A DNA stretch of 64,000 nt, from the sequence record PZ445488.1. One strand, written 5' to 3'. Position numbers and translations under genes: made by a program. The notes under the pieces are model-generated. The model made no database searches, had not been told where the DNA came from, and saw nothing but the letters and a program-made list of their open reading frames with translations. Source of the DNA: a phage. Positions 16,229 to 57,203 of this stretch are shown piece after piece (position 1 is the stretch's first letter; the number at the start of each line of letters is the position of its first letter).

Positions 16229-16259
16229 GATTATACTCCAACCATCCTTGGTTGTAAAC
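16229..16259 (-). promoter_or_regulatory. early promoter, hairpin-in-spacer type
   Basis: attatactccaaccatccttggttgtaaac = minus GTTTAC-18 nt-TATAAT; spacer holds the caacca/tggttg hairpin; repeated at 57174 and 58193. Confidence 0.55.
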
Positions 16260-24441: not shown

Positions 24442-24936
24442 TCACAACTTATTAATATTTACTTTAATTCGCTTTCTTTTCTTGGAAGGAATTTGTTCTG
24501 GACCTTTATTTACGACTGCACCTGTAGTTGTTCCTGATGCAATAGCTTGAGGACTGCCACCTGAATCACCAGCAACCATATCCTCAAATAAAGGGAGTTC
24601 TTTAAATATTTCTTTCTGTTGTTCTTCAGTAATGTTATAGCGTGAAGCTACAGCACTCCAGGCAGACATCATTGAGGCCATTCCATTAAGACCTGGAACA
24701 GTACTCATCATTCGCTTCATTGAACGAACTGAAGCATGAAAAGGTGTATAAGCCGCTTTCTCTTCGGGAGTAGAAGGACGTTTAAGAACACTTCCACGTT
24801 CGTCGATTATTTTGGCTTCGTACGCTTTCCATTCGGTAAAAGGTTTTTGCATTAGTCGAATAAACTTATATGCGTAAACAGAATCTATTGCAGTGTTAAT
24901 AATACCCATAGGTACCTCCTGAGTATATTTAATCAA
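24442..24936 (-). CDS. hypothetical protein (164 aa)
   Basis: Track ORF in the 61.x-equivalent block. Confidence 0.45.
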   Translation of the reverse strand: MIKYTQEVPMGIINTAIDSVYAYKFIRLMQKPFTEWKAYEAKIIDERGSVLKRPSTPEEKAAYTPFHASVRSMKRMMSTVPGLNGMASMMSAWSAVASRYNITEEQQKEIFKELPLFEDMVAGDSGGSPQAIASGTTTGAVVNKGPEQIPSKKRKRIKVNINKL

Positions 24937-25127: not shown

Positions 25128-25787
25128 TTAACCTCGATTCATAAATGCATTAAATATTTGGTCATCAACAGAAATTTCTAATTCGACTTCAATTGTTTCA
25201 GCCTTTTCTTCAGGTGGTAATTCGTATCCACACACTACAATTTTTTCATCGATATCAAAATATACAGAAGCAATACGATTAATGTTACTTTCAGTTAAGT
25301 CTAAATCAACATCAACATCTTTTTGACCTACACTTAAAGGATAACTAATACGAGTTATTTTATTATCTTTAACAAAGAGTCCACCAACATACTCTGTACT
25401 ACGTTTGAAGTTTACACGTTTCCGAATTGAAAGATATGATACATCTTTACCGTGAGCTCGGCTCATAGGACATAATGAATAACTAGAATAAGAGATGTCA
25501 AATCCTACGCCTTCAACATGTGCTAGAGTATCATGAGTAAACCAATTATAGTCGTATGCCAAATCCATTAAATTATAATATGTGAAAGGCACTGGATTAA
25601 CATCATATGTTGTACCTTTAAAATCTGCCCAGGCAACGATTTCGTTATCTTTAACAATTACAAAAATTACACCAATATGGTATCCGTTATTATTTTCATT
25701 CGGCGTTATATTATAACATTGTGCATTAGGAAATTTACCATATTTAAATGGCGCGTTTTTGTGCATGTAATAAATCATATTATTCAC
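25128..25787 (-). CDS. hypothetical protein (219 aa)
   Basis: Track ORF in the 61.2-equivalent position. Confidence 0.45.
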   Translation of the reverse strand: MNNMIYYMHKNAPFKYGKFPNAQCYNITPNENNNGYHIGVIFVIVKDNEIVAWADFKGTTYDVNPVPFTYYNLMDLAYDYNWFTHDTLAHVEGVGFDISYSSYSLCPMSRAHGKDVSYLSIRKRVNFKRSTEYVGGLFVKDNKITRISYPLSVGQKDVDVDLDLTESNINRIASVYFDIDEKIVVCGYELPPEEKAETIEVELEISVDDQIFNAFMNRG

Positions 25788-26073
25788 CTGTGATTTCGGT
25801 TACGATATCTTTGTTATCGAAATTAGGGTCACAATACAAAACATAGTTGTACTGCATGATACCGCCAGACTTAAGTTGTTCAACAACTTTATTAACCATA
25901 TTAGGACGGTCTCGTTTAGTGATGTTCATGATATCAGAGAAGATTTGTTGTTCAACATCTTCTTGATTTGCAGTCATTGACCACTCACAGAGGTCTTTAT
26001 CATAACCTGCTGTAACTGGAGCTGGTGCACATGATACTGCAAGTAAGATTGCTGCCAATGATAACTTTTTCAT
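25780..26073 (-). CDS. sp: Spackle-like periplasmic protein (lysozyme inhibitor / superinfection exclusion)
   Basis: 97 aa with signal peptide MKKLSLAAILLAVSCAPAPVTA; GYDKDLCEWSM...GGIMQYNYVLYCD matches recalled T4 Sp (97 aa); between 61 and 41 as in T4. Confidence 0.6.
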   Translation of the reverse strand: MKKLSLAAILLAVSCAPAPVTAGYDKDLCEWSMTANQEDVEQQIFSDIMNITKRDRPNMVNKVVEQLKSGGIMQYNYVLYCDPNFDNKDIVTEITGE

Positions 26074-26093
26074 TTTAACTCCTTAGTTGATTT

Positions 26094-26132
26094 GATAGGA
26101 CTACTATACTATAGTCCATCTATAATGTAAAC
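26094..26132 (-). promoter_or_regulatory. early promoter with embedded stem-loop (PeSL-like)
   Basis: gataggactactatactatagtccatctataatgtaaac. Confidence 0.5.
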
Positions 26133-26136
26133 AAGT

Positions 26137-26385
26137 TTATTCTTTTTCGCGAATAATAATTACTTGTTGAGGCTGCTGAGCAGATTTCTTTTCGGCAACG
26201 ATAGACCAAATTAAAGTTCCAATCCAACCAATCATCGTCCAGTTAAAGAGTAAAGATACAAAGAAGATTGCTGTTGTGCTTTTTGTGCCACGAATAAGTG
26301 CGATTACCCAAGGCAACATGTAAATGATGATTGAACCAATACCTGCGATTAAAACTGCTACTGAACTAGCTACGAATAATTCCAT
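26137..26385 (-). CDS. small two-helix inner-membrane protein (82 aa), possible immunity-type
   Basis: Two hydrophobic segments (SSVAVLIAGIGSIIIYML / LLFNWTMIGWIGTLIWSIV); own promoter and AGAGGAAA RBS. Confidence 0.5.
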   Translation of the reverse strand: MELFVASSVAVLIAGIGSIIIYMLPWVIALIRGTKSTTAIFFVSLLFNWTMIGWIGTLIWSIVAEKKSAQQPQQVIIIREKE

Positions 26386-26410
26386 GTTAATTTCCTCTTG
26401 ATTTGTTATG

Positions 26411-26443
26411 TTTATAGTATCTTATTTTAACTTTGGTGTAAAC
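26411..26443 (-). promoter_or_regulatory. early promoter
   Basis: Minus strand GTTTAC-18 nt-TACTAT. Confidence 0.45.
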
Positions 26444-26446
26444 CGA

Positions 26447-26815
26447 TTAATTAAATTTGTTTAAACGTTCAATACACTGGACATAGTTATTCGCGATTTG
26501 TTTCTGGGAAGGCTCTTTACCAGTTGTTTCAACATAGCGAATGAATGCGATTTCAGTAGCCTGTAGACAATGTTCTTTAACGCGTTGTTCTTTTGACAAT
26601 GCTACAGTATCAGAATCACGATAACGTTGAGCATGAGCATCAGCTTTAATCATTCGATTACCTACAGTAACCGGGTCTTCCACTTCAACTTTAGGTTGGT
26701 CATACTGTTTAACATTCGGATTGTAAATCAATTGGCCAACGTTATTAGGGATAAAGCCATGAGCACCACATCCGGTTAATCCAAATACCATTGCTAAAGT
26801 GATTAATTTTTTCAT
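26447..26815 (-). CDS. predicted lipoprotein (122 aa)
   Basis: Signal peptide ending in lipobox LTGC (MKKLITLAMVFGLTGC). Confidence 0.55.
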   Translation of the reverse strand: MKKLITLAMVFGLTGCGAHGFIPNNVGQLIYNPNVKQYDQPKVEVEDPVTVGNRMIKADAHAQRYRDSDTVALSKEQRVKEHCLQATEIAFIRYVETTGKEPSQKQIANNYVQCIERLNKFN

Positions 26816-26834
26816 TTCAATTTCCTCTGTAGTT

Positions 26835-26873
26835 GATAGAAAGATAGTAACGCAGTATGTGGTGCTTGTAAAC
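26835..26873 (-). promoter_or_regulatory. early promoter
   Basis: gatagaaagatagtaacgcagtatgtggtgcttgtaaac; GTTTAC on minus strand. Confidence 0.45.
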
Positions 26874-26885
26874 AGTTATTTAAAA

Positions 26886-27074
26886 TTATTGAAAATCTGC
26901 TTCGAAAACTTTCTCGTCATTAACAAATGCTTTAACTAATGCGTTGTTCACTTCGGCAAGTTGTACCGTAACCCACTCGATTTCTTCGCGATCACCTGAT
27001 AACATGATATCTTTAGTGAACATCTCACCGCTTTTAAACCAACCGATAAAAGTAACTTTAGTTAATTTGCCCAT
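26886..27074 (-). CDS. dmd: Dmd-like antitoxin (discriminator of mRNA degradation)
   Basis: About 62 aa from the second Met; VTFIGWFKSGEMFTKDIML...AEVNNALVKAFVNDEKV resembles recalled T4 Dmd (60 aa); adjacent to gene 41 as in T4. Confidence 0.5.
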   Translation of the reverse strand: MGKLTKVTFIGWFKSGEMFTKDIMLSGDREEIEWVTVQLAEVNNALVKAFVNDEKVFEADFQ

Positions 27075-27388
27075 ATTTCCTCGCAAAATGCCCATTCAGC
27101 GTGATAAACTGTAGCACCTTTAGTATCATTCATTTGAACTACGTCTACTGGAGAAATTACTCGATAGAGACGTGGTTCACCTCCATAAGAGCGTGCTGCT
27201 CGTCCTGCATAAATCTTTGCTAAACCGATATCTTCAGTAAAGAATACACGATTCAAGTTTTTCTTACGTCCAGTTTCAGACAGAACTCCTGTTTCTTCAG
27301 GAGGACAAAGCATGTTTTCGATGTTAGCTGAACTACTTGAACCGTGATAAAAAATCTTAAATTCTGCTTTGCAATCGATGGTTTCCAT
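27062..27388 (-). CDS. hypothetical protein (108 aa)
   Basis: Track ORF with own early promoter (27410-27448). Confidence 0.45.
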   Translation of the reverse strand: METIDCKAEFKIFYHGSSSSANIENMLCPPEETGVLSETGRKKNLNRVFFTEDIGLAKIYAGRAARSYGGEPRLYRVISPVDVVQMNDTKGATVYHAEWAFCEEIWAN

Positions 27389-27409
27389 TTTGTTCTCCTC
27401 TTGGTTGGT

Positions 27410-27448
27410 GTAAGTACATCATATCATGCCTAGAGGAAGATGTAAACC
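27410..27448 (-). promoter_or_regulatory. early promoter
   Basis: Minus strand GTTTAC-18 nt-TATGAT. Confidence 0.45.
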
Positions 27449-27454
27449 CCGAAA

Positions 27455-27478
27455 GGAGACCGAAGTCTCCTTTTTATT
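27455..27478 (-). terminator. stem-loop at the 3' end of gene 41
   Basis: ggagac-cgaa-gtctcc perfect hairpin; the T5 run lies on the plus-strand side, so polarity is ambiguous. Confidence 0.4.
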
Positions 27479-28919
27479 AAAATTTTAACTCATTGGCTAA
27501 GCTATCTAGGTCAGCACGTGTTGCTTTGGCTTTACCTACGCGTTCCGTACGATTCACCTCTGCCTGACGCATCTGAGCACCTGCGTTTTCATTTACTGTG
27601 TTAGGTGTGTTCATGCCTTCTTGCTCAATCTCAATCCATTTCTGGTTGCCTTTACGTACACCCATCAAGAACTTGTTCCACTTATTCTTATCACCGTATC
27701 GTGATTTGATTTGTTTGATAAGTTGTTGTTCAGCTTGTGCAAGTTCTTCGGTTTCAATTACGGCCAACATGAAATCTGCCGTTGCTGGTAAACCTGCTGA
27801 TTCTGCGATATCACTCATGTTCATGTCTGAAGCATCCCATGCTGCACGTCCTACTTGGGCTGCAGTCCATAGAACTGTTTCAGATTCTACTGCTAATGCA
27901 CGAAGTTCTTCTGCGATAGCTTTAACTAATGTGTAGCTATTTTCAGTGTAAACTCTGATACGACAAGACCCACAAATACCTAAGTAATCAACCATGATTA
28001 CAGATGGCACAAAGTTCTTCTTAAGTTTTAACTCATTAAGCAATGCACGGAATGTATTAGCATTAGCTCCACCAGTAGGATACTGTTTAACTACTAAACG
28101 TCCTAATGTGGATTTTGAACGCCATTTTTCCATCTTGGCTTTATATTCAGCATAAGATACGTTACCATCATCGATATCATCGAGCGATACGTCAAGCATA
28201 TTTGCATCTATACGCTTAGCACAAACTTCTTCAGCCATTTCCATGGAAATATAAAGAACATTATGTCCTGTTTGAAGATAATCTGCAGCAAGTGAACAAA
28301 GGCCTAAAGATTTACCAACGTTAACACCGGCCATTAAAACGTTCAGTGTACCTGTTTCTGCGCCACCTTTGGTGATTTTATTAAGAATGTTTAATTTGAA
28401 CGGGACCTTACGTGCTTTATTTAGATAAGAAAGCCAGCGTGCTTCATAGTCTTCCATCCAGTCATGTCCAACATAACTATCAAACGAAATTGAAAGTGCT
28501 TGACGCATAATATCAGGAATAGCTCCTACGTCAGGCATTTTCTTGTTACGTTGTTCTGGAGGTAGTTCAGCATTAGACTGAATCTCAATGATTTTGGATG
28601 TAGCATTATACATCGCTTTTTGCTGGACATATTTCTCAGTTTCTTTAACCAACCATTCGTGGTCTTCAGGAGTATCAGCCAATTTTTCAATTAGGTCTGA
28701 AGTTCCTTTATATTCGGCTTCAGTTAAAGAACTGTTATCTAAAGCCACCTTTAACGCATTGATAGATGGCATTGCATTATATTCGTTAACGTGGCTCTTT
28801 ATAATTTTAAAGACGTTTTTTGCCGGTCCACGCTCAAAATACTCAGAATCCATATAAGGCCAGACCTTAGAAAAATAAGCCTGGTCATATACTAGATGAG
28901 ACAAAATAATTTCTACCAC
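27477..28919 (-). CDS. 41: replicative DNA helicase (DnaB-like)
   Basis: 480 aa (T4 gp41 475 aa); Walker A GVNVGKS; synteny with 61 and uvsX. Confidence 0.85.
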   Translation of the reverse strand: MVEIILSHLVYDQAYFSKVWPYMDSEYFERGPAKNVFKIIKSHVNEYNAMPSINALKVALDNSSLTEAEYKGTSDLIEKLADTPEDHEWLVKETEKYVQQKAMYNATSKIIEIQSNAELPPEQRNKKMPDVGAIPDIMRQALSISFDSYVGHDWMEDYEARWLSYLNKARKVPFKLNILNKITKGGAETGTLNVLMAGVNVGKSLGLCSLAADYLQTGHNVLYISMEMAEEVCAKRIDANMLDVSLDDIDDGNVSYAEYKAKMEKWRSKSTLGRLVVKQYPTGGANANTFRALLNELKLKKNFVPSVIMVDYLGICGSCRIRVYTENSYTLVKAIAEELRALAVESETVLWTAAQVGRAAWDASDMNMSDIAESAGLPATADFMLAVIETEELAQAEQQLIKQIKSRYGDKNKWNKFLMGVRKGNQKWIEIEQEGMNTPNTVNENAGAQMRQAEVNRTERVGKAKATRADLDSLANELKF

Positions 28920-32741: not shown

Positions 32742-32981
32742 TTATTTGAATTTCTTGGCAATGTTGATATAACGTAAAGCTTCAGAATCTATACTTCCAA
32801 GAACACTATGAAGAAATGCATCAGCGTAGTATTCCAATTGAACAGGTTCTTTAATCACTTTAGCCGCTTTGGTTTCAAACAGGCCCATCAGGGCCTTTTT
32901 AAGAATTTGTTCGTTAGTGTTCAGTTTCATAGTCAAAATCTCTTCGTTAAGTTTATAATTAAAACTTTTTCTAGAAATCAT
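32742..32981 (-). CDS. hypothetical protein (79 aa)
   Basis: Track ORF overlapping the stop of the 386-aa gene. Confidence 0.4.
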   Translation of the reverse strand: MISRKSFNYKLNEEILTMKLNTNEQILKKALMGLFETKAAKVIKEPVQLEYYADAFLHSVLGSIDSEALRYINIAKKFK

Positions 32982-34138
32982 TCCGGGTACCTCAAAGCGT
33001 CATCAGAGCTAGTTATATCAATAATAGATATGGAGTTTTCTGCTAACCCGTTTTTAGATAATTGACGTTTATAATATCTTTCACAATATGTACACGTCGT
33101 CCCGCAGATTTCATTAGCACAATCGAAATCTGGATGTCTGAACCACCTTTTTTCTAAAAAGCCATCTAACAAAGAGGTTTCAATATTTACTGTATGTGAA
33201 AACTCAGTTTCGTTTTCAAGAGTGAAAATAGTCTCTAAAGGCTTCCACAGTTCTAACAAATTACCTTCAAACTTTTCAGAAGCGTATGCTTCAAGAACTT
33301 TCAAAATGTAGTCTGTGCTACCTGTACGTCCTGAAACTTTGAATTGAGTGATACCAATATCATTATAAAGTTTCAAATCTTGAGGACGAACAAAACGAGT
33401 TCTCAGCCAGTTAAATGGGTCTGTATCACGAGCTTTAATACAGTGTTGCATTGGATATCCATTTAAGGATTTAGCATCATCAGCGGTAACATCAGTACTA
33501 TGGAAAATATAGCAAGAGTCACGATAGCTACAATGTGTTGTATACCCTTTACCAGCATTAGAACAGAACTCATTTACAAGAACTTCAAATATTATATTGT
33601 TCTTATTGCAAAACTCTGCTGCACGCTTCAGGAAAGAAACTGAACGGTTCTTATGAATTCCGCAGCAGACCTTTTTGATATTATATTGGTCATGCAAGTA
33701 TTTGATTTGAGTTACAGCATCGACATGTAGAATTGTTGAAACTTCAATCTCAATATCTTTATTGACTTCACGAACAATTTCCATAACAACAGGGTTAGCG
33801 ATAGTAATACGCCATACGCCTATTGACCAAAGATACTGAACATAATCCTGAATAGCTTTCTTCTTCCACTCAACTAGTTCTCTTTTTGAACCAGGATTTA
33901 TCGTGTTGAGTGTATAGTTAAAGCAAATACCTAATTCGTTACAACGTTTAACGTAATCTTCTAACATCTTTTTGTCAACGTCAGGAAGCCTAAAATCAGG
34001 TCTGGCTGCTACAAAAGCCATTTCTCTTGTAGAGCCGTATACTTCGTTTATCAAGCTATTAGGATAAGTTTTATTGAGCTCTACGATTTTATCAAGAAGA
34101 GCTAAATCAAAATTCGTTCCGATTTTAAAAGTATTCAT
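32978..34138 (-). CDS. hypothetical Cys-rich protein (386 aa), possible Fe-S / U32-like enzyme
   Basis: Cys clusters EFCSNAGKGYTTHCSYRDSCYIFHS and C-terminal CANEICGTTCTYC (Cx4Cx3Cx2C); not the radical-SAM CxxxCxxC layout; fold unassigned. Confidence 0.4.
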   Translation of the reverse strand: MNTFKIGTNFDLALLDKIVELNKTYPNSLINEVYGSTREMAFVAARPDFRLPDVDKKMLEDYVKRCNELGICFNYTLNTINPGSKRELVEWKKKAIQDYVQYLWSIGVWRITIANPVVMEIVREVNKDIEIEVSTILHVDAVTQIKYLHDQYNIKKVCCGIHKNRSVSFLKRAAEFCNKNNIIFEVLVNEFCSNAGKGYTTHCSYRDSCYIFHSTDVTADDAKSLNGYPMQHCIKARDTDPFNWLRTRFVRPQDLKLYNDIGITQFKVSGRTGSTDYILKVLEAYASEKFEGNLLELWKPLETIFTLENETEFSHTVNIETSLLDGFLEKRWFRHPDFDCANEICGTTCTYCERYYKRQLSKNGLAENSISIIDITSSDDALRYPE

Positions 34139-34195
34139 TTTTTTTGCATCTCACGTTAATTGATGCGATGGTTTTTGCAGGTCTTACTTAAATTA

Positions 34196-34597
34196 TTATA
34201 GATTAGGTTTATATGATTTAAATGTTTCGAATTCGCCTTTATTCATAAGAGCTTTGAATTCGTCAGGACGCATAGCTTTGTCGTCGATAATCCAATCATA
34301 TACTGGTTTATGTGTTAGCAAATTATGGTACTTCAAGCCAATGTTTGCCAAGTTCTGAATCAGACTTGGGAGAATGTCAATTGCTATACGACCAGGACCT
34401 ACTGACTTCATACCACGAGCCGTGTAAAGCGTTATGGTATGCCCTGCATCATACAGGGCATTAATGGCAGACACCATTTCGACGTCTGGTTTGAAGTTCA
34501 CGTAATCACGATTGTTATTCCATTCCGTGATGCAATCATCGATATCAAAACAAAGATTAAGCATGTTTTCTACATGGTGCATTAGATTCGTTCCCAT
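34196..34597 (-). CDS. HAD-like phosphatase (small)
   Basis: Ordered motifs FDIDDCIT (I), ITLYTARG (II), THKP (III), DWIIDD (IV); likely starts at Met 34582, overlapping the upstream stop. Confidence 0.45.
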   Translation of the reverse strand: MGTNLMHHVENMLNLCFDIDDCITEWNNNRDYVNFKPDVEMVSAINALYDAGHTITLYTARGMKSVGPGRIAIDILPSLIQNLANIGLKYHNLLTHKPVYDWIIDDKAMRPDEFKALMNKGEFETFKSYKPNL

Positions 34598-36270
34598 TGA
34601 TGAGTGATATCGCCACCGATTGGACGATAGGAAACACCAGTTTCTTTATCAGTTAGTACCCATTTACCAGGATTTTTTGTAATCAGAGTAGCCGTTACAG
34701 GTTCTGCTACGTCATAACTAATAGAGCCGTCTTGAAGTACACGGCCCATGTTATGTAATTGCTTAGTCAGAAGTTCCATACCTTTATAATATGCGGCCAC
34801 CGCTTTAAGTGGATTATTCTTGAAATAACCACCTAATGCAATCCAGATAATTGCTACTGCCAAATGATGATACTCATTAAACGAACTCATCTTTCCATAT
34901 TTGTAAACTAATGGATTGATGTTAATAGTCACATTACAAGTTGTTTCATCAATAGTAAACTGACCCCAGGTCGGATTAGCATTGAATTCATCATAACCTG
35001 AAACAGCATAAAGCACTTTAGCTTCATCGTACAATTTTGGCCCGTAAATCTTGGTTTCACCAAAATATCCACGAGGGTCGATAAACTTGACTTCACCATT
35101 ATCAGTAATCATAGTATTACTGAAGTTCGGGTCGCCGTGAATAACAGAGTACTGTCCCTGAGAACGGTTATGATAACGAATAAGATGTTCTAAAGCTTGT
35201 TTCAACATTGGCTTCAGACGTCCAATCTTAGTGTAGTTCACGTGTGTGATTTTACCAAATGAATCAATCAATGGCTGAATGCTTTCACAACGATCAATAA
35301 CTTTCGTATAGAACTCTTTAGTGAAATCACGGCGAACAGTTTCAGGACTTACAAAATAAGTGTCTGTGCTGAATTTCAGTGCATCTAAAATTGCATCAAC
35401 AATTTGTGGACGAGCAAGACTTGATTTGGATTTAATATATTCAAATGCCGGCTTACCTTTAATGCGTTCCATAATAAAGTGGCCGCCAGGATGATAACTT
35501 ACAATCCGTGGAACTGAATCTGATTTAACTTTCTTATACCAATTGACTTCATCTTTTTGAAGTGCAACGCCCTGTTCTGTTAAAGCAATCTTTGTTACCG
35601 TTTCTTCGCCAATTTCAACTGCATTAAAACTACGATTAAGTTCACGAACTTCATGAGCTTTTTCAAGTTTAGGCATATCACCTAAATCAATTAGATTCAT
35701 AAGCTCTGATTTATTGAATGCACTACCGTAAAGGAATTCTACGAAATCACGTCCTTTGCAGTATTCGTGAATTTCCTCATCAGTAGAACCCATGTAGAAT
35801 TCCCAGTCTTTGAACTGATAAATTCCTACAACATTACCACCTGTTGAACCTACGTTAGTGATATTTTCACCATCGAAATTATATCGACATTCATCACCCT
35901 TAACATAGATTGCGTTAACATTCCAAGACCATGAACCAAAGTCAGGAATAATATCACACCAGTTAACAATTACGTTATGGCCATCTAAATCTTTGTATAA
36001 TTTAGCAAGAGCATAAGCAGAACCATACGCTTCATCAACTGTACGAATAGTCACATTGAACCCTTCTTGCTCGCAATAAGCTCGAACAGTTTCAGCAAAT
36101 TTTGAATGAACTACTACAATAATTTCATCTGCGCCAAGGTCAGAATAAATTGTATACAAATTGCTCAGAATAGTGTCTTGTTTATAGTTAACAAGCACCT
36201 TAGGAATATGGTGCGTTATTGGATACAAACGAGTTGCCAGTCCAGCACCAAGAATAACAGCTTTTTTCAT
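34582..36270 (-). CDS. bifunctional sugar-1-phosphate nucleotidyltransferase (RmlA/GlmU-like) + anomeric sugar kinase (APH/choline-kinase fold)
   Basis: 562 aa; N-terminus AVILGAGLATRLYPIT (G-x-G-T-R-L-x-P-x-T); C-terminal half has HGDPNFSN (Brenner HGDxxxxN) and FIDPRG (DFG-like). Confidence 0.7.
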   Translation of the reverse strand: MKKAVILGAGLATRLYPITHHIPKVLVNYKQDTILSNLYTIYSDLGADEIIVVVHSKFAETVRAYCEQEGFNVTIRTVDEAYGSAYALAKLYKDLDGHNVIVNWCDIIPDFGSWSWNVNAIYVKGDECRYNFDGENITNVGSTGGNVVGIYQFKDWEFYMGSTDEEIHEYCKGRDFVEFLYGSAFNKSELMNLIDLGDMPKLEKAHEVRELNRSFNAVEIGEETVTKIALTEQGVALQKDEVNWYKKVKSDSVPRIVSYHPGGHFIMERIKGKPAFEYIKSKSSLARPQIVDAILDALKFSTDTYFVSPETVRRDFTKEFYTKVIDRCESIQPLIDSFGKITHVNYTKIGRLKPMLKQALEHLIRYHNRSQGQYSVIHGDPNFSNTMITDNGEVKFIDPRGYFGETKIYGPKLYDEAKVLYAVSGYDEFNANPTWGQFTIDETTCNVTININPLVYKYGKMSSFNEYHHLAVAIIWIALGGYFKNNPLKAVAAYYKGMELLTKQLHNMGRVLQDGSISYDVAEPVTATLITKNPGKWVLTDKETGVSYRPIGGDITHQWERI

Positions 36271-36308
36271 GTTGTGGTCCTCATTGGTAAGTAGGTGTAT
36301 TGTACACT

Positions 36309-36455
36309 ATTCTAGTTAAAGCATTCATACTTTGCTTGTAGTCCAATCATAATCCATCCGATTATAAGAGTCGGAATCATTACTGGAGCCGTTAAGCTCC
36401 AGTAGATAGTCATGACAAGCATCAATAGTAAAAGTCCTATTGTTATTGCTTTCAT
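36309..36455 (-). CDS. small membrane peptide (48 aa)
   Basis: Hand-translated MKAITIGLLLLMLVMTIYWSLTAPVMIPTLIIGWIM...; ATG overlaps the TGA of the isomerase gene. Confidence 0.3.
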
Positions 36456-37087
36456 TGTTCGCCTCGTAACATGGCACCTAGTGCACCACCAGGGTGGAAC
36501 TTAAGGAAGTCATTAGAGGTAAATCCGCGTTCAGACGAAAGGTTGATAGCGAACGTATCGATAAGCGCTAACAACAATGTAGTGGACATTGTAGGAGCCA
36601 GAGAATTCTCATCAACCTCTACCGCGATACCGGTACAGAATGTATAATCAAAAAGAGCTTCGTATTCTTGTGGAATGTCCGGGTTACAATGCAACAGAAT
36701 CTGTTTGACATTTGGACGAATCATTTTAAGATGCTTAGCCACGCCTATCATTTCTTCAGTCTTACCAGAACGACTAATATGAATCAACACATCATTAGGC
36801 GCAATGAATCCTGCATCACCGTGAGAATAATGCCCAGTGTTCAAGTACATACTCGGGATACCGAGCGAAGCAAATGTCTCAGAAGCTTTAGTTGCAATAT
36901 TAGCATTCTTACCAACACCTGTAATAATTACTCGGCTTTCATAATTACTAAGTCCAGGGCGTCGAAGAGTTTCTAGAATAGCATTATAACGAGCAGGGTT
37001 TTGACTAATTACTTTGGCCATAGCGGCCAAAGAAGAAGCTTGTTTTATGATTGCGTCAATAGCGATAGTAATAGGAGTAGTTTTCAT
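36452..37087 (-). CDS. SIS-domain sugar-phosphate isomerase, KdsD/GutQ-like arabinose-5-phosphate isomerase (no CBS domains)
   Basis: 211 aa; TGVGKNANIATKASETFASLGIPS...HGDAGF...ISRSGKTEE...LAPTMSTT...RGFT.NDF..HPGGALG aligns block-for-block with recalled E. coli KdsD SIS domain. Confidence 0.7.
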   Translation of the reverse strand: MKTTPITIAIDAIIKQASSLAAMAKVISQNPARYNAILETLRRPGLSNYESRVIITGVGKNANIATKASETFASLGIPSMYLNTGHYSHGDAGFIAPNDVLIHISRSGKTEEMIGVAKHLKMIRPNVKQILLHCNPDIPQEYEALFDYTFCTGIAVEVDENSLAPTMSTTLLLALIDTFAINLSSERGFTSNDFLKFHPGGALGAMLRGEQ

Positions 37088-37127: not shown

Positions 37128-39839
37128 TCAAAAATCGAACATATCGAACAGAGATGCTTTCTTCTCGTAATCGAGTTTCGCTGCTGATGTGAATCCTTCA
37201 AGTGGTTTAATAAATGTCTTCTCAAGGAGAACAGTGTAGTCCATCCAATGAAGTACGTCGTCTTTAATTAAATCTGTGATTTCAGTACCAGAAGGCCATG
37301 CGATACATTTATCACCGAATGGGTTTCCATCACGTAAAGGCAGAACGTATACCTTTTCGCCTTCTACAACTTGTGGAGCATCAATATTACCTTTGATAGC
37401 TCTGTTATATGTCAGAATTCCACGAATATGGAACGGGCATTTAGGACCAGGGAATCCACCAACGTCATATTTAGCAATGTTATTCGCAGAAGATACCGAC
37501 GCGATGCTAATATAATTCAATTGACGGAATTCTTTTTCAAACTCTTTAAAATATTCTTGTAATGATTCTTCACCTTCTTGAAGCATACGACGAATACATT
37601 CTTTAAGAGCTTTCTGTACTGCTTTAGGGGTCGAAGATTTCTGTGTTTCGAGACCCATGATTTTGAGTTTAGGCTCAGCGTATCTGGTTCCTTCCATATC
37701 CCACACGTTTAATGCATAACGTTTCTTACCAGTCCAGAATCCACCAATACCTTTAGAACCGAGTGGAGGACCAGCAATAGCTTCTCGGTCCATGAACATC
37801 AAATGTTGCTTATTATTCATGTATTCACACATTTCACGGAAACCTCTATCAATAGCCGGTTCCATACGTTCACGAGCAAACTTATCTAAGAAGTCTACCC
37901 AATGGTTGGTATCACGGAATTTAGATTCACCAACCTTATCGATAATTTTATCAGCAGATACGTAAATAGAGTCTGTATCACCATAAAGAACGAAAGCTTC
38001 ACCTTCTGTACCACAAACTTCATTCAGATATTCATTAACTTTACGTTCAATCCACTGTAAAGCCATTTGCCCGAATGTTGTGATTGCAGTAGCATTACGC
38101 AAATCATAATAACGGAACCAAACGTTACCAAGTGCACCATAAAGCGAGTTGATGAGCAATTTACGGTTAATTTGTGCAGTCATACCTGCAACTTCAGTAC
38201 GTTGAGCTCTAAACAACATTTCATTAAGAGATTTAGCAGACAACTTTTTAATCTTTTCTTTAATCTCGTCAGTGAAGTCGAAACGATAATCAACATCTAA
38301 TGGTTCGTCAACAGAAAGATTAGGATTATGTAACGCCTCTTTAATTATTTCACCATTACGTTGAGCCGCAAGCATATAACCTTTATGTTCTTTACGTTGA
38401 TTAAAGACCTTAGTGATTTCAGTTGGAACTACACCATCACGGTCTTTATAATACATCATGCCGTTAGGAGAGCAACTGTACACATCTGAAGGACGTTCAG
38501 CGATTGCGTTAATATAATCATGCAATGGAGCTACTTTAAACGTTCCTGCTATTGTTTCTGGGCTAATATTCACTTGGCGAATAATACTTGGATACAGAGA
38601 TGTAAGGTCGAAACTCATTACATATTTGTATCGATTTGGAATAGGTTCCTTAACAAAAGCGCCAGGATAAGGTTGAACCGGGTGAGAACGACCTTGTGGA
38701 ATCACCTTGTTCTGCTCTTTAAGGCTATTAAAAATAATAGCATCCCATGTTTTAATTGGGCTGAACACAGATTGAATCTGTATCTTAGCATAATAACCCA
38801 TGTCCAAACTCAAGTTGATGAACTGGCGCTTAGCATCAATTTGCAATACACGATACACGTCGATAATGTTATAAGAAATATATCGTTGGTGATTGCTTTC
38901 ACGAAGCTTAGAAATAGGGCCGTCATATTTCAGTTTACCGACATTCAATTCAAATTCTGAAATGTAATCCAGAGAATACGACGGTTGGTTTGTGAAAGAG
39001 AATTTTTTGTAAAGGTCAATGTAATCAAGAACAGAAATACCGAACAATGTAATGATTTCACGAGAACCATACATGTTTTCGATAACTTTAACACGAGTTT
39101 TACGATGTGGTGATAAACGTTTCGCAGTAGATTCGCCAAAAATATTCTTGATTCGGTTATACACATATGGAATATCAAATGACTCAACGTTCCATCCGGT
39201 TAAAATGACAGGAGTTTTCTGTTGCCAGAAGTTGAGATATTCCATCAACAATTCTTTTTCGTTATCGAACGGCATATAAATGATTTTATCGATAATTTCG
39301 GATGGAACTTCATCACCACCTTGTTCTTGAAGCTTAGCCGCAATTTCGATAGACCATTCTTCTACATTACCATATGGAGAATTCAAAAGGTCGAATACGT
39401 AGAACCTGTCGTCAATTGAGTCATAATGGGTGATAGCATCAATCGGATGTTTTGCTTGTGACGGCTCAGGGAACCCATCCGGAGATGTTACTTCGATATC
39501 GAAGTTAGCCACACGAATTTTTGTATGGTCGTATTTGATTTCATAGTTATAAGTGTCAGACAAATACGACAATTTGAAATCGTCCATACCTAATGCTTCA
39601 AGACCGATATCTTCCATGCGTTTAATCCATTGGGAGGCATCACGCATATTAGCGAACAACTTACGAGTACACGGCTTACCGTAGATATCGAAATATTTCG
39701 TAGCCTGACTTTCTGGACAATGAGCAAACAATGATGGTTTATATTCTACTTCACGAGTACGTTCACGGCCATTAGAATCGATGTAACGTTCAAAAATTGA
39801 ATCACCAATCTGTTCAACCGTTAAGTAAAATTCTTTCAT
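37128..39839 (-). CDS. 43: DNA polymerase (family B) with 3'-5' exonuclease
   Basis: 903 aa (T4 gp43 898 aa); YGDTDS polymerase motif C and SLYPS motif A; uninterrupted. Confidence 0.9.
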   Translation of the reverse strand: MKEFYLTVEQIGDSIFERYIDSNGRERTREVEYKPSLFAHCPESQATKYFDIYGKPCTRKLFANMRDASQWIKRMEDIGLEALGMDDFKLSYLSDTYNYEIKYDHTKIRVANFDIEVTSPDGFPEPSQAKHPIDAITHYDSIDDRFYVFDLLNSPYGNVEEWSIEIAAKLQEQGGDEVPSEIIDKIIYMPFDNEKELLMEYLNFWQQKTPVILTGWNVESFDIPYVYNRIKNIFGESTAKRLSPHRKTRVKVIENMYGSREIITLFGISVLDYIDLYKKFSFTNQPSYSLDYISEFELNVGKLKYDGPISKLRESNHQRYISYNIIDVYRVLQIDAKRQFINLSLDMGYYAKIQIQSVFSPIKTWDAIIFNSLKEQNKVIPQGRSHPVQPYPGAFVKEPIPNRYKYVMSFDLTSLYPSIIRQVNISPETIAGTFKVAPLHDYINAIAERPSDVYSCSPNGMMYYKDRDGVVPTEITKVFNQRKEHKGYMLAAQRNGEIIKEALHNPNLSVDEPLDVDYRFDFTDEIKEKIKKLSAKSLNEMLFRAQRTEVAGMTAQINRKLLINSLYGALGNVWFRYYDLRNATAITTFGQMALQWIERKVNEYLNEVCGTEGEAFVLYGDTDSIYVSADKIIDKVGESKFRDTNHWVDFLDKFARERMEPAIDRGFREMCEYMNNKQHLMFMDREAIAGPPLGSKGIGGFWTGKKRYALNVWDMEGTRYAEPKLKIMGLETQKSSTPKAVQKALKECIRRMLQEGEESLQEYFKEFEKEFRQLNYISIASVSSANNIAKYDVGGFPGPKCPFHIRGILTYNRAIKGNIDAPQVVEGEKVYVLPLRDGNPFGDKCIAWPSGTEITDLIKDDVLHWMDYTVLLEKTFIKPLEGFTSAAKLDYEKKASLFDMFDF

Positions 39840-57144: not shown

Positions 57145-57173
57145 AATATTTTCCTCTCGTTAAGATAGATTCA

Positions 57174-57203
57174 TTATACTCCAACCATCCTTGGTTGTAA
57201 ACC
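57174..57203 (-). promoter_or_regulatory. early promoter, hairpin-in-spacer type
   Basis: attatactccaaccatccttggttgtaaac, exact copy of 16229-16259. Confidence 0.55.

Follow-up and report, generated by a model that had tools for sequence, protein, structure and literature searches.

Three small genes on the minus strand, sp, imm and imm.1, occupy positions 25780–26815 of the window (the whole stretch of phage DNA analyzed, 64,000 nucleotides, sequence record PZ445488.1). The window is that of a T4-like, RB69-like Mosigvirus and displays 100% identity with Escherichia phage CEV1. The identities of the three genes are close to certain and nothing contradicts them. The best explanation, taken as a whole, is that sp, imm and imm.1 very likely constitute an early envelope cassette of an RB69-like T-even phage. 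The third gene encodes a predicted lipoprotein orthologous to T4 Imm.1. A published comparison (PMC5885020) lists Imm.1 as a protein that only the T4 group has and the RB69 group lacks. Contrary to this listing, on the evidence of sequence comparison the RB69 group has an Imm.1 ortholog, which is divergent and relocated. The reported difference in imm.1 gene content between the T4 and RB69 groups is thus an artefact, because sequence divergence hides the ortholog of the RB69 group.

The initial annotation described three envelope-targeted genes lying side by side, each with its own early promoter. The arrangement is confirmed, and the promoters hold as a prediction, with the pattern GTTTACA-N17-TAnnnT ahead of each gene (Table 1). 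An AGGAG or GAGGA ribosome-binding site (Shine-Dalgarno) also precedes each of the three open reading frames.

Table 1. Genes and predicted early promoters of the sp–imm–imm.1 region (positions in the window).
Feature	Position	Strand	Description
gene 61.2 ortholog, AdfA (anti-DarT factor A)	25128..25787	-	downstream flank; Pfam PF23813 AdfA, 2.2e-118
sp	25780..26073	-	97 aa, T4 gene 61.3 ortholog
predicted T4-type early promoter of sp	26103..26132	-	GTTTACA-17-TATAGT
imm	26137..26385	-	82 aa, inner-membrane superinfection immunity protein
predicted T4-type early promoter of imm	26414..26443	-	GTTTACA-17-TACTAT
imm.1 ortholog	26447..26815	-	122 aa predicted lipoprotein (DUF5481 / phrog_1754)
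predicted T4-type early promoter of imm.1	26844..26873	-	GTTTACA-17-TACTAT
dmd (antitoxin against RnlA/LsoA)	26886..27095	-	upstream flank; Pfam Dmd 1.3e-19, 54% identity to T4 Dmd

The early-promoter pattern is found 11 times in the 64-kb window where 0.26 matches are expected, a 40-fold enrichment. Every one of the 11 matches lies on the coding strand (minus), with four of them inside positions 26103–27447. A generic sigma-70 scan of the region displays no such enrichment, with 21 sites found and 17.5 expected in shuffles, and this result is what would be seen if the open reading frames, or their signal and lipobox features, had arisen by chance in AT-rich phage DNA. The probability of a chance origin is however negligible. 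It is refuted by the enrichment and strand specificity of the early-promoter pattern, by the strong Pfam and PHROG matches of the encoded proteins, by the presence of the lipobox in every phage-genome homolog inspected and by conservation across six genera.

The neighborhood is a mosaic of host-conflict genes: the dmd antitoxin gene, AdfA and an open reading frame similar to ADP-ribosyltransferases. The dmd gene is annotated as 62 aa in relatives, and the window AdfA shows 65% identity to T4 61.2. An NCBIfam scan of Sp, Imm, Imm.1 and the ADP-ribosyltransferase-like open reading frame gave no match.

Sp matches the Pfam family T4_Spackle (PF25676) over profile positions 1–96 of 96, with an E-value of 1.1e-42 and a score of 145 bits (cut-off 27), and matches phrog_1586 at 2.9e-42. 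A BLAST search against T4 proteins shows 66% identity to T4 Sp, and the PDB matches are 6x6o (1e-39) and 7cn6 (1e-33). Residues 23–97 of the window Sp align with 7cn6_A, the solved chain of mature Spackle (75 aa), and the N-terminus of the window Sp is hydrophobic (Kyte-Doolittle). The 97 aa sequence is predicted to be a precursor with a signal peptide; the mature form would begin at residue 23, be about 75 aa long and reside in the periplasm. The Pfam match and the 7cn6_A alignment bear out the Sp-like, signal-peptide protein of the initial annotation. In comparison with PMC7677548, the disulfide cysteines Cys29 and Cys81 are retained, as are the residues that contact the gp5 lysozyme, S32–A35, Q37 and N76. 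Inhibition of the gp5 lysozyme is established for T4 Sp (PMC7677548). By orthology, the window Sp would be exported to the periplasm, where its target would be the lysozyme domain in the gp5 tail spike of any phage arriving later; it would bind and inhibit this domain. Because of this inhibition, the incoming tail could not pass the cell wall.

Imm displays 65% identity to T4 Imm over its full length (83 aligned residues, E-value = 3e-36, BLAST). It matches Pfam PF14373 Imm_superinfect at 1.5e-15 (57.2 bits, cut-off 27.9) and phrog_1039, "immunity to superinfection", at 1e-30; a PDB sequence search with Imm gave nothing meaningful. There are two hydrophobic stretches at approximately residues 1–31 and 37–62 (Kyte-Doolittle, 19-residue mean >1.2). 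The protein had been described previously as an 82 aa inner-membrane protein with two helices; the two hydrophobic stretches agree with that description, but the identity of the protein as Imm itself was missed. Residues R33 and W50 of T4 Imm matter for its function (bioRxiv 10.64898/2026.03.06.709160), and both are kept in the window Imm as R32 and W49. T4 Imm binds the tape-measure protein gp29 and thereby prevents the DNA conduit from forming, according to the same 2026 preprint. By orthology, the window Imm would be located in the inner membrane and bind gp29 of the incoming phage, and formation of the DNA conduit would then be blocked.

The sp and imm genes are the two experimentally established, classical T4 exclusion genes. 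The proposal of superinfection exclusion made for the cluster therefore stands for sp and imm, as orthologs of these genes, i.e. for two of the three genes only. This part of the reading is textbook knowledge and involves no new inference. At ≥95% nucleotide identity, the sp/imm/imm.1 cluster is kept in over 150 genomes of Mosigvirus, and the same three genes are annotated in close Mosigvirus records. The impact on annotation is small, since sp and imm are textbook genes and over 150 genomes of RB69-like phages already have the cluster annotated.

The 122 aa lipoprotein with an LTGC lipobox was correctly recognized in the initial annotation; the statement that it has no T4 counterpart is wrong. 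It corresponds to T4 imm.1 (T4p046), which lies upstream of imm and has the lipobox LAGC. Identity to T4 Imm.1 is 32% by BLAST (E-value = 3e-18), and 32%–35% over the comparisons made. The window Imm.1 matches Pfam PF17578 DUF5481 at 2.5e-9 (37.9 bits, cut-off 27) and phrog_1754 at 5.9e-28 over residues 2–120. Full-length matches to phrog_1754 are found in T4 (6e-43), Dhakavirus (2e-52), Gaprivervirus (5e-47), Karamvirus (4e-35) and Jiaodavirus (2e-15), and the family is conserved at the protein level across six genera. By tblastn, Imm.1 is present in 657 phage records. In some RefSeq records, members of the family carry a wrong label, "iduronate sulfatase" or "immunity protein"; the label "iduronate sulfatase" is without support. 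The literature search on Imm.1 returned one incidental mention and no functional study.

The DUF5481 core family is very narrow at HMMER sensitivity, since word-indexed homolog searches with the window Imm.1 and with T4 Imm.1 gave three matches each and only six clusters emerged when 1.84 billion representatives were searched exhaustively with a profile. The wider family was reached via synteny and phrog_1754 only. A first hhalign comparison of the DUF5481 set with the extended set aligned the N-terminal 48 columns only, which could be a signal-peptide artefact; repeated on mature sequences, it gave a probability of 94% and an E-value of 1e-7. That the two sets belong to a common family is settled by the full-length phrog_1754 matches. 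A weak Pfam match of the Jiaodavirus lipoprotein to T7 gp14 (E-value = 0.076) was dismissed as chance.

The lipobox cysteine of the window Imm.1 is Cys16, where lipidation is predicted, and Gly is at the +2 position. Each of the eight phage-genome homologs inspected has the motif L[TSA]GC, and none of these has Asp at +2. In one metagenomic homolog, P0002, the lipobox Cys is replaced by Phe, thus lipidation is not universal in the family. In E. coli, the Lol sorting rule states that Asp at +2 retains a lipoprotein in the inner membrane. Since Imm.1 lacks Asp at +2, by this rule the inner leaflet of the outer membrane is the expected location. Imm.1 is accordingly drawn here as a predicted lipoprotein of that leaflet, with a disulfide-stapled helical domain that would extend into the periplasm. 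In the model, the mature protein has at its N-terminus a flexible linker, which contains the motif YNPNVKQY, followed by a C-terminal three-helix domain. Cys83 and Cys114 are invariant in both family alignments and are a putative disulfide pair; in the AF2 model, which is of moderate confidence only (mean pLDDT 61), they are on the adjacent helices 75–98 and 104–120. A Foldseek search of the PDB with this model gave no informative fold (best E-value 3.5), and a search of BFVD returned only Imm.1 itself and T4-type Imm.1. A PDB sequence search with the Imm.1 profile gave nothing meaningful, the best match being a de novo TIM-barrel design (E-value = 0.022).

The gene order in the T4 annotation is 43 - imm.1 - imm - 42. 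In Mosigvirus the imm.1-imm pair is found between dmd and sp, in the slot of T4 gene 61.4, and no homolog of gene 61.4 is present in the cluster. Overall the phrog_1754 lipoprotein adjoins imm in eight of nine lineages examined; adjacency is seen in T4, T2, T6, Mosigvirus, Jiaodavirus, Dhakavirus, Gaprivervirus and three metagenomic lineages. It spans three neighborhoods (43/42, dmd/sp and after a frd.3-like gene) and both gene orders. The gap between imm.1 and imm is 7–14 bp in the metagenomic lineages and 61 bp in the window. Karamvirus KMB20 has the lipoprotein, and Imm was not detected there (best HMM match 10.6 bits, E-value = 0.04). The pair is downstream of gene 43 in T4 and in most other genera examined. 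Because this is the commoner position, the Mosigvirus position appears to be the result of a relocation, a direction that is unrooted. As the pair is located at dmd/sp, all three genes come together, each with its own predicted early promoter. The window contains no second copy of sp, imm or imm.1 and no imm or imm.1 remnant at the 43/42 site; the matches obtained were at chance level (E-value ≥ 0.07).

Because adjacency to imm has survived genomic moves, Imm.1 may contribute to the same early envelope program as imm. The synteny might alternatively result from a common timing of expression or from co-transfer, without a shared function. An action of Imm.1 in exclusion or entry blocking is a tentative proposal, which we hold to be possible but somewhat short of an even balance. 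The probable target would be the cell envelope or a conserved portion of the incoming tail that is exposed to the periplasm, and the action would probably be independent of Imm.

The question of independence concerns a different explanation, an obligate partnership in which Imm.1 would serve Imm either as an assembly or stability factor or as the outer-membrane half of an Imm complex that spans the envelope. Adjacency to imm is kept through relocations and order swaps in eight of the nine lineages, and the gaps, often of just 7–14 bp, suggest co-transcription. However, Imm expressed alone from a plasmid is enough to exclude T4, and it co-purifies with gp29 when Imm.1 is absent (bioRxiv 10.64898/2026.03.06.709160). 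Imm.1 is thus dispensable for Imm action. In addition, the KMB20 genome keeps the lipoprotein without a detectable Imm, and in the window imm.1 and imm, 61 bp apart, have separate predicted promoters. An obligate partnership is therefore improbable.

The persistence of the lipoprotein without Imm in a Karamvirus is also consistent with an envelope function that is unrelated to secondary phages, such as lysis timing or inhibition, envelope stability, or the countering of an envelope-associated host defense or a colicin. The varied targets of the surrounding host-conflict genes (dmd, AdfA and the ADP-ribosyltransferase-like open reading frame) point in the same direction. On the other hand, imm is the one early gene with which imm.1 has repeatedly co-migrated, for which a related role is the simplest explanation, and searches of Pfam, PHROG and NCBIfam revealed no resemblance to spanins, to the RI antiholin or to any known anti-defense family. 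An unrelated envelope function is a minority possibility, on the unlikely side.

Receptor masking had also been suggested for the cluster and is not favored for the lipoprotein. Here Imm.1 would be of the T5 Llp or phi80 Cor type; anchored in the outer membrane, it would bind the phage's outer-membrane receptor at the periplasmic face and inactivate it. As with Llp (PMC9586334; 10.64898/2026.03.26.714494), Imm.1 is small, predicted to be expressed early and predicted to be an outer-membrane lipoprotein. Divergence between the T4 and RB69 groups is also faster for Imm.1 (32%–35% identity) than for Imm and Sp (65%–66%). However, the Imm.1 sequences of T2, T4 and T6 are 97.6%–98.4% identical. These three phages use different primary receptors: OmpF/FadL, OmpC/LPS and Tsx, respectively. 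Near identity of Imm.1 in the face of different receptors disfavors masking. Furthermore, Pfam, PDB-sequence and Foldseek searches detected no resemblance to Llp or Cor in sequence or in fold, and the gene tracks imm and gene 43 rather than the tail-fiber adhesin genes. Receptor masking is thus very unlikely.

Returning to exclusion, the gene for this predicted outer-membrane lipoprotein accompanies imm in at least six genera of the Tevenvirinae. Structural mechanisms are available for Sp (2020) and for Imm (2026 preprint), and Imm.1 is the obvious candidate if T-even exclusion has a further component. In its most specific form the proposal is that Imm.1 is a third T-even exclusion factor, a periplasmic lipoprotein anchored in the outer membrane that would form, with periplasmic Sp and inner-membrane Imm, a three-layer barrier to the tail of a secondary phage. 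As such it might engage, for example, the tip of the tail tube as it emerges, or the tape-measure protein, at a stage before the inner membrane is reached. This form of the proposal is speculative and rather doubtful. If it is true, imm.1-imm would represent a mobile two-gene exclusion module of the Tevenvirinae.

The closest known systems are the T4 proteins themselves. T4 Spackle (gp61.3; PF25676; PDB 6X6O, 6XC0, 6XC1, 7CN6, 7CN7) has the same length as the window Sp (97 aa). Cleavage of the signal peptide before Gly23, a prediction for the window Sp, and a site beside gene 61.2 are common to both. They differ by ordinary orthologous divergence only, and in the upstream neighbor, which is imm in the window and gene 61.4 in T4. 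T4 Imm (PF14373; UniProt P08986) and the window Imm both display two hydrophobic segments and a C-terminal VIIIREKE tail. The genes differ in location, since imm is between dmd and sp in the window and between genes 43 and 42 in T4; the window imm has its own predicted early promoter and starts 61 bp downstream of imm.1, whereas the gap in T4 is 11 bp. T4 Imm.1 (T4p046, NP_049661; PF17578; phrog_1754) is 125 aa in length compared with 122 aa for the window protein. Both have a lipobox (LAGC in T4), a YNPNVK.Y motif, a Y-R-x-S motif and two C-terminal cysteines, and both genes are directly upstream of imm. Unlike T4 Imm.1, the window Imm.1 lacks an extra cysteine pair, C33 and C44.

Among phage lipoproteins, T5 Llp and Cor of phi80 and N15 are outer-membrane proteins that inactivate FhuA; Imm.1 differs in that it does not follow the receptor specificities of T2, T4 and T6. 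Ltp of Streptococcus phage TP-J34 offers a possible analogy, as a phage lipoprotein which acts in exclusion at the DNA-entry step (PMC3952083). However, TP-J34 is a temperate phage of a Gram-positive host and the sequence of Ltp is unrelated to that of Imm.1.

The segment at 25780–26815 of the window contains three open reading frames without overlap, and these match the description of three small envelope-targeted proteins in the initial annotation. Genes on either side have the same orientation as the cluster. The cluster is a T-even early envelope/exclusion cassette in an arrangement typical of RB69-like phages. A 2.5-kb query around it displays 100% identity to Escherichia phage CEV1 (KM389390) and 97.7–98.4% identity to ~155 complete genomes (Straboviridae, Tevenvirinae, Mosigvirus, i.e. 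the RB69 group). Many GenBank records already annotate the sp-imm-imm.1 order, and sp and imm can be found in textbooks; as stated, the finding is thus not new. In the RB69 group, imm.1 is a divergent and relocated ortholog of the T4 gene.

Features in the window and in comparison phage loci (L-numbers, with coordinates local to each locus)
Feature	Position	Strand	Remarks
Promoter	16230–16259	−	
164-aa ORF	24442–24936	−	downstream of cluster
65-aa ORF			downstream of cluster
219-aa ORF, T4 61.2 ortholog	25128–25787	−	directly downstream of sp; Pfam AdfA (anti-DarT factor A), 2e-118
sp	25780–26073	−	97 aa
imm	26137–26385	−	82 aa
imm.1	26447–26815	−	122 aa
dmd	26886–27095	−	upstream of cluster by transcription
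ADP-ribosyltransferase-like ORF, 108 aa	27062–27388	−	upstream of cluster by transcription
Site of missing ~430-bp segment	about 27389–27476		
Early promoter of ADP-ribosyltransferase-like ORF	27418–27447		
Gene 41 helicase	27477–28919	−	upstream of cluster by transcription
Gene 42	31983–32699		
Genes at the T4 imm.1-imm site	32742–37087	−	
Gene 43	37128–39839		
Promoter	57173–57202	−	
Comparison locus for the ~430-bp segment, phage ATK47	L002, 3446–3820		
T4 imm.1 (NC_000866)	L003, 9137–9514		
47-aa ORF, Shigella phage SP18	L009, 2347–2490		phrog_3610
47-aa ORF, phage UPEC07	L004, 2740–2883		phrog_3610

Because the 61.2 ortholog matches AdfA, the cluster lies between two anti-toxin/anti-defence genes, dmd and adfA. 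The interval between dmd and sp is occupied by imm.1-imm in the window, whereas T4 has the unrelated gene 61.4 there. The rest of the window has neither a second imm or imm.1 nor a remnant of either. The site of imm.1-imm in T4, between genes 43 and 42, has other genes in the window, i.e. those of a SIS-domain protein (211 aa), a nucleotidyltransferase (562 aa), a 133-aa ORF, a peptidase-U32-like protein (386 aa) and a 79-aa ORF. These probably resemble the sugar-nucleotide genes tied to arabinosyl-hydroxymethylcytosine DNA modification in RB69.

The ADP-ribosyltransferase-like reading frame overlaps the start of dmd and has a separate early promoter. It matches phrog_2110 (1e-59) and, weakly and below threshold, the rifampin ADP-ribosyltransferase Arr-ms (E 0.089). 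It is labelled “putative ADP-ribosyl transferase” in one relative, and T4 has no gene at that position. Between this gene and gene 41, most close Mosigvirus relatives have an additional segment (~430 bp) that includes a hypothetical ORF of 124 aa (compared in ATK47). The segment is missing from the window and from phage 348Ecol098PP and thus is an indel polymorphism within Mosigvirus. Downstream of the cluster, the 164-aa ORF ends in 48 residues that share 69% identity with complete T4 gp61.1 (54 aa), and nothing in T4 61.1 corresponds to the N-terminal ~110 residues (phrog_2086); the gene is therefore extended or fused relative to T4.

The 97-aa protein, initially described as a signal-peptide Sp-like protein, is by sequence Spackle itself. 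It matches the whole Pfam T4_Spackle profile (145 bits, 1.1e-42), phrog_1586 “spackle periplasmic” and the structures 6X6O and 7CN6 solved for Spackle, and shares 66% identity with T4 Sp. Its residues 23–97 align with the mature chain in 7CN6 (75 residues), thus signal-peptide cleavage is predicted after Ala22. T4 Spackle has a Cys29–Cys81 disulfide and touches the gp5 lysozyme with the main chain of S32-M33-T34-A35 and the side chains of Q37 and N76 (PMC7677548). The window Sp has every one of these residues, and by orthology its activity would be the same as that of T4 Sp.

The 82-aa protein displays two long hydrophobic stretches, in keeping with the two-helix inner-membrane protein first described, and can now be named. 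Its identity to T4 Imm is 65% across the entire length (E 3e-36), and its family matches are Pfam Imm_superinfect (57 bits) and phrog_1039 “immunity to superinfection” (1e-30). In T4, a construct of the tape-measure protein gp29 co-purifies with Imm, a cryo-EM map places Imm against the helical-bundle domain of gp29, mutation of R33 or W50 abolishes exclusion activity, and plasmid-expressed Imm alone lowers T4 plating (2026 preprint, bioRxiv 10.64898/2026.03.06.709160). The two residues are conserved in the window protein as R32 and W49, which together with the T4 identity and family matches makes it the classical superinfection immunity protein.

The 122-aa protein starts with MKKLITLAMVFGLTGC, a standard lipobox, as had been noted. 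It matches Pfam DUF5481 (37.9 bits, cut-off 27) and phrog_1754 (5.9e-28), and tblastn against the phage collection gives matches in 657 records, ~155 at ≥95% identity (Mosigvirus) and ~500 at 32–34% (T4, T2, T6 and other Tequatroviruses). Reading frames of the latter group are labelled imm.1, “putative membrane protein”, “immunity protein” or “iduronate sulfatase”. In the T4 reference annotation imm.1 (T4p046, 125 aa) precedes imm by 11 bp, and the pair is flanked by genes 43 and 42. Direct comparison of T4 Imm.1 with the window protein gives 32% identity (E 3e-18), and the T4 protein also starts with a lipobox, LAGC. Judged by these alignments the gene is the ortholog of T4 imm.1, and, contrary to the initial statement, the lipoprotein thus does have a counterpart in T4. 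The RefSeq name “iduronate sulfatase”, carried by T4 Imm.1 and by orthologs in several phage records, finds no support in Pfam, PHROG, NCBIfam or structure searches and so appears to be an annotation error that has spread between records.

All three genes have a Shine-Dalgarno sequence in front (AAGGAG, GAGGAA and GAGGAA) and, 30–40 nt upstream of it, GTTTACA-N17-TA(T/C)(A/T)(G/A)T, the form of T4 early promoters. GTTTACA-N17-TAnnnT occurs 11 times in the 64 kb against 0.26 expected, a count reached in none of 100 shuffles. All 11 sites are on the minus strand, four of them within 1.35 kb (26103–27447). This enrichment supports, at the sequence level, the earlier proposal of a separate early promoter for each gene. 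A generic sigma-70 scan of the region shows no enrichment (21 found, 17.5 expected from shuffles), and no intrinsic terminator is predicted between the three genes. Two early promoters elsewhere in the window, at 16230 and 57173, are identical over 30 nt (GTTTACAACCAAGGATGGTTGGAGTATAAT); their flanks are alike for ~10–15 nt and the wider DNA is unrelated. Such identity points to duplication of a promoter cassette or else to very strong constraint.

Only six clusters came out of an exhaustive HMMER search with the profile against 1.84 billion representative proteins, which makes the DUF5481 core a very narrow one. In more distant T4-like genera, a 147–176-aa lipoprotein gene was found beside imm or its site in every one inspected: 43-lipoprotein-imm-42 in Jiaodavirus, 43-imm-lipoprotein in Dhakavirus, 43-imm-47-aa membrane ORF-lipoprotein in Gaprivervirus and 43-74-aa ORF-lipoprotein-42 in Karamvirus. 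These lipoproteins all have L[TSA]GC, none has Asp at +2, and all display G-[DE]-[IV]-V-x-A-x-[ED]-[VI]-G-[KQ]-x-[RK] right behind the cysteine and two or more cysteines towards the C-terminus. Profile-profile comparison with the DUF5481 set gives 98% probability over the N-terminal 48 columns only, and still 94% (E 1e-7) after removal of signal peptide and lipobox. phrog_1754 covers every one of these lipoproteins at full length, with E between 2e-15 and 2e-52. The 47-aa ORF of Gapriverviruses is strongly hydrophobic and may add one more small membrane protein to the imm module.

Three divergent metagenomic homologs are 30–45% identical to the window Imm.1, and each is followed within 7–14 bp by an Imm_superinfect gene; two of the pairs are between genes 43 and 42 and one is after a frd.3-like gene. 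One metagenomic homolog (P0002) has LAGF-SAHA where the lipobox cysteine is expected and presumably is a soluble periplasmic variant. In a sample, not a census, of nine lineages, imm and the lipoprotein gene are adjacent in eight, in three genomic neighbourhoods and both gene orders. This is good evidence that imm.1 and imm have been inherited and moved as a unit.

Such linkage could suggest that Imm.1 is an obligate partner of Imm, which is improbable. The Karamvirus KMB20 (Enterobacter phage, loci L014–L017) has the lipoprotein, but Imm was undetected across its whole 174-kb genome with an HMM from five diverse Imm proteins (best match 10.6 bits, E 0.04), and plasmid-expressed Imm alone suffices for exclusion. 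Imm and Imm.1 can thus each do without the other. In KMB20 the lipoprotein is between genes 43 and 42, with a 74-aa soluble ORF at the expected imm site; a weak Sp-like ORF (4e-5) is near gene 41.

The AlphaFold2 model of Imm.1 (six-sequence alignment, mean pLDDT 61) is disordered at residues 1–47, the signal peptide and linker, and shows three helices at 48–70, 75–98 and 104–120, with pLDDT 75–89 from residue 70 on. The flexible linker contains an invariant Y31-N-P-N-V-K-x-Y38 motif. The invariant C83 and C114 are on helices 2 and 3 of the model, positions compatible with, though not proof of, a periplasmic disulfide. Foldseek with the model gave no PDB match (best E 3.5), and its BFVD matches were all Imm.1 proteins; a PDB sequence search was empty.

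Superinfection exclusion, as initially proposed, holds for Sp and Imm as T4 orthologs; for Imm.1, a predicted outer-membrane lipoprotein, we infer both localisation and role. With orthology from this analysis and the Sp and Imm mechanisms shown in T4 by others, Sp would block the gp5 lysozyme in the periplasm and Imm the gp29 conduit in the inner membrane. The most likely reading of Imm.1, held tentatively, is that it would contribute independently to early envelope sealing against secondary phages by acting on a conserved periplasm-exposed element, not a receptor. Identity between T4 and the RB69 group is 32–35% for Imm.1 against 65–66% for Imm and Sp, thus Imm.1 evolves faster than its neighbours; this would fit interaction with a diverging phage component but is not diagnostic. 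That Imm.1 has an unrelated envelope function is possible, though less likely.

No papers on Imm.1 or DUF5481 were found in the searchable literature library. Its function is a modest, testable question, made sharper by the structures and mechanisms of Sp and Imm. Receptor masking, the other role first proposed, is probably not that of Imm.1 and appears very unlikely. T2, T4 and T6 use different outer-membrane receptors, and imm.1 goes along with imm and gene 43 rather than with tail-fibre genes. Masking of the T5 Llp type demands specificity for the receptor of the phage, whereas Imm.1 is 97.6–98.4% identical among T2, T4 and T6.
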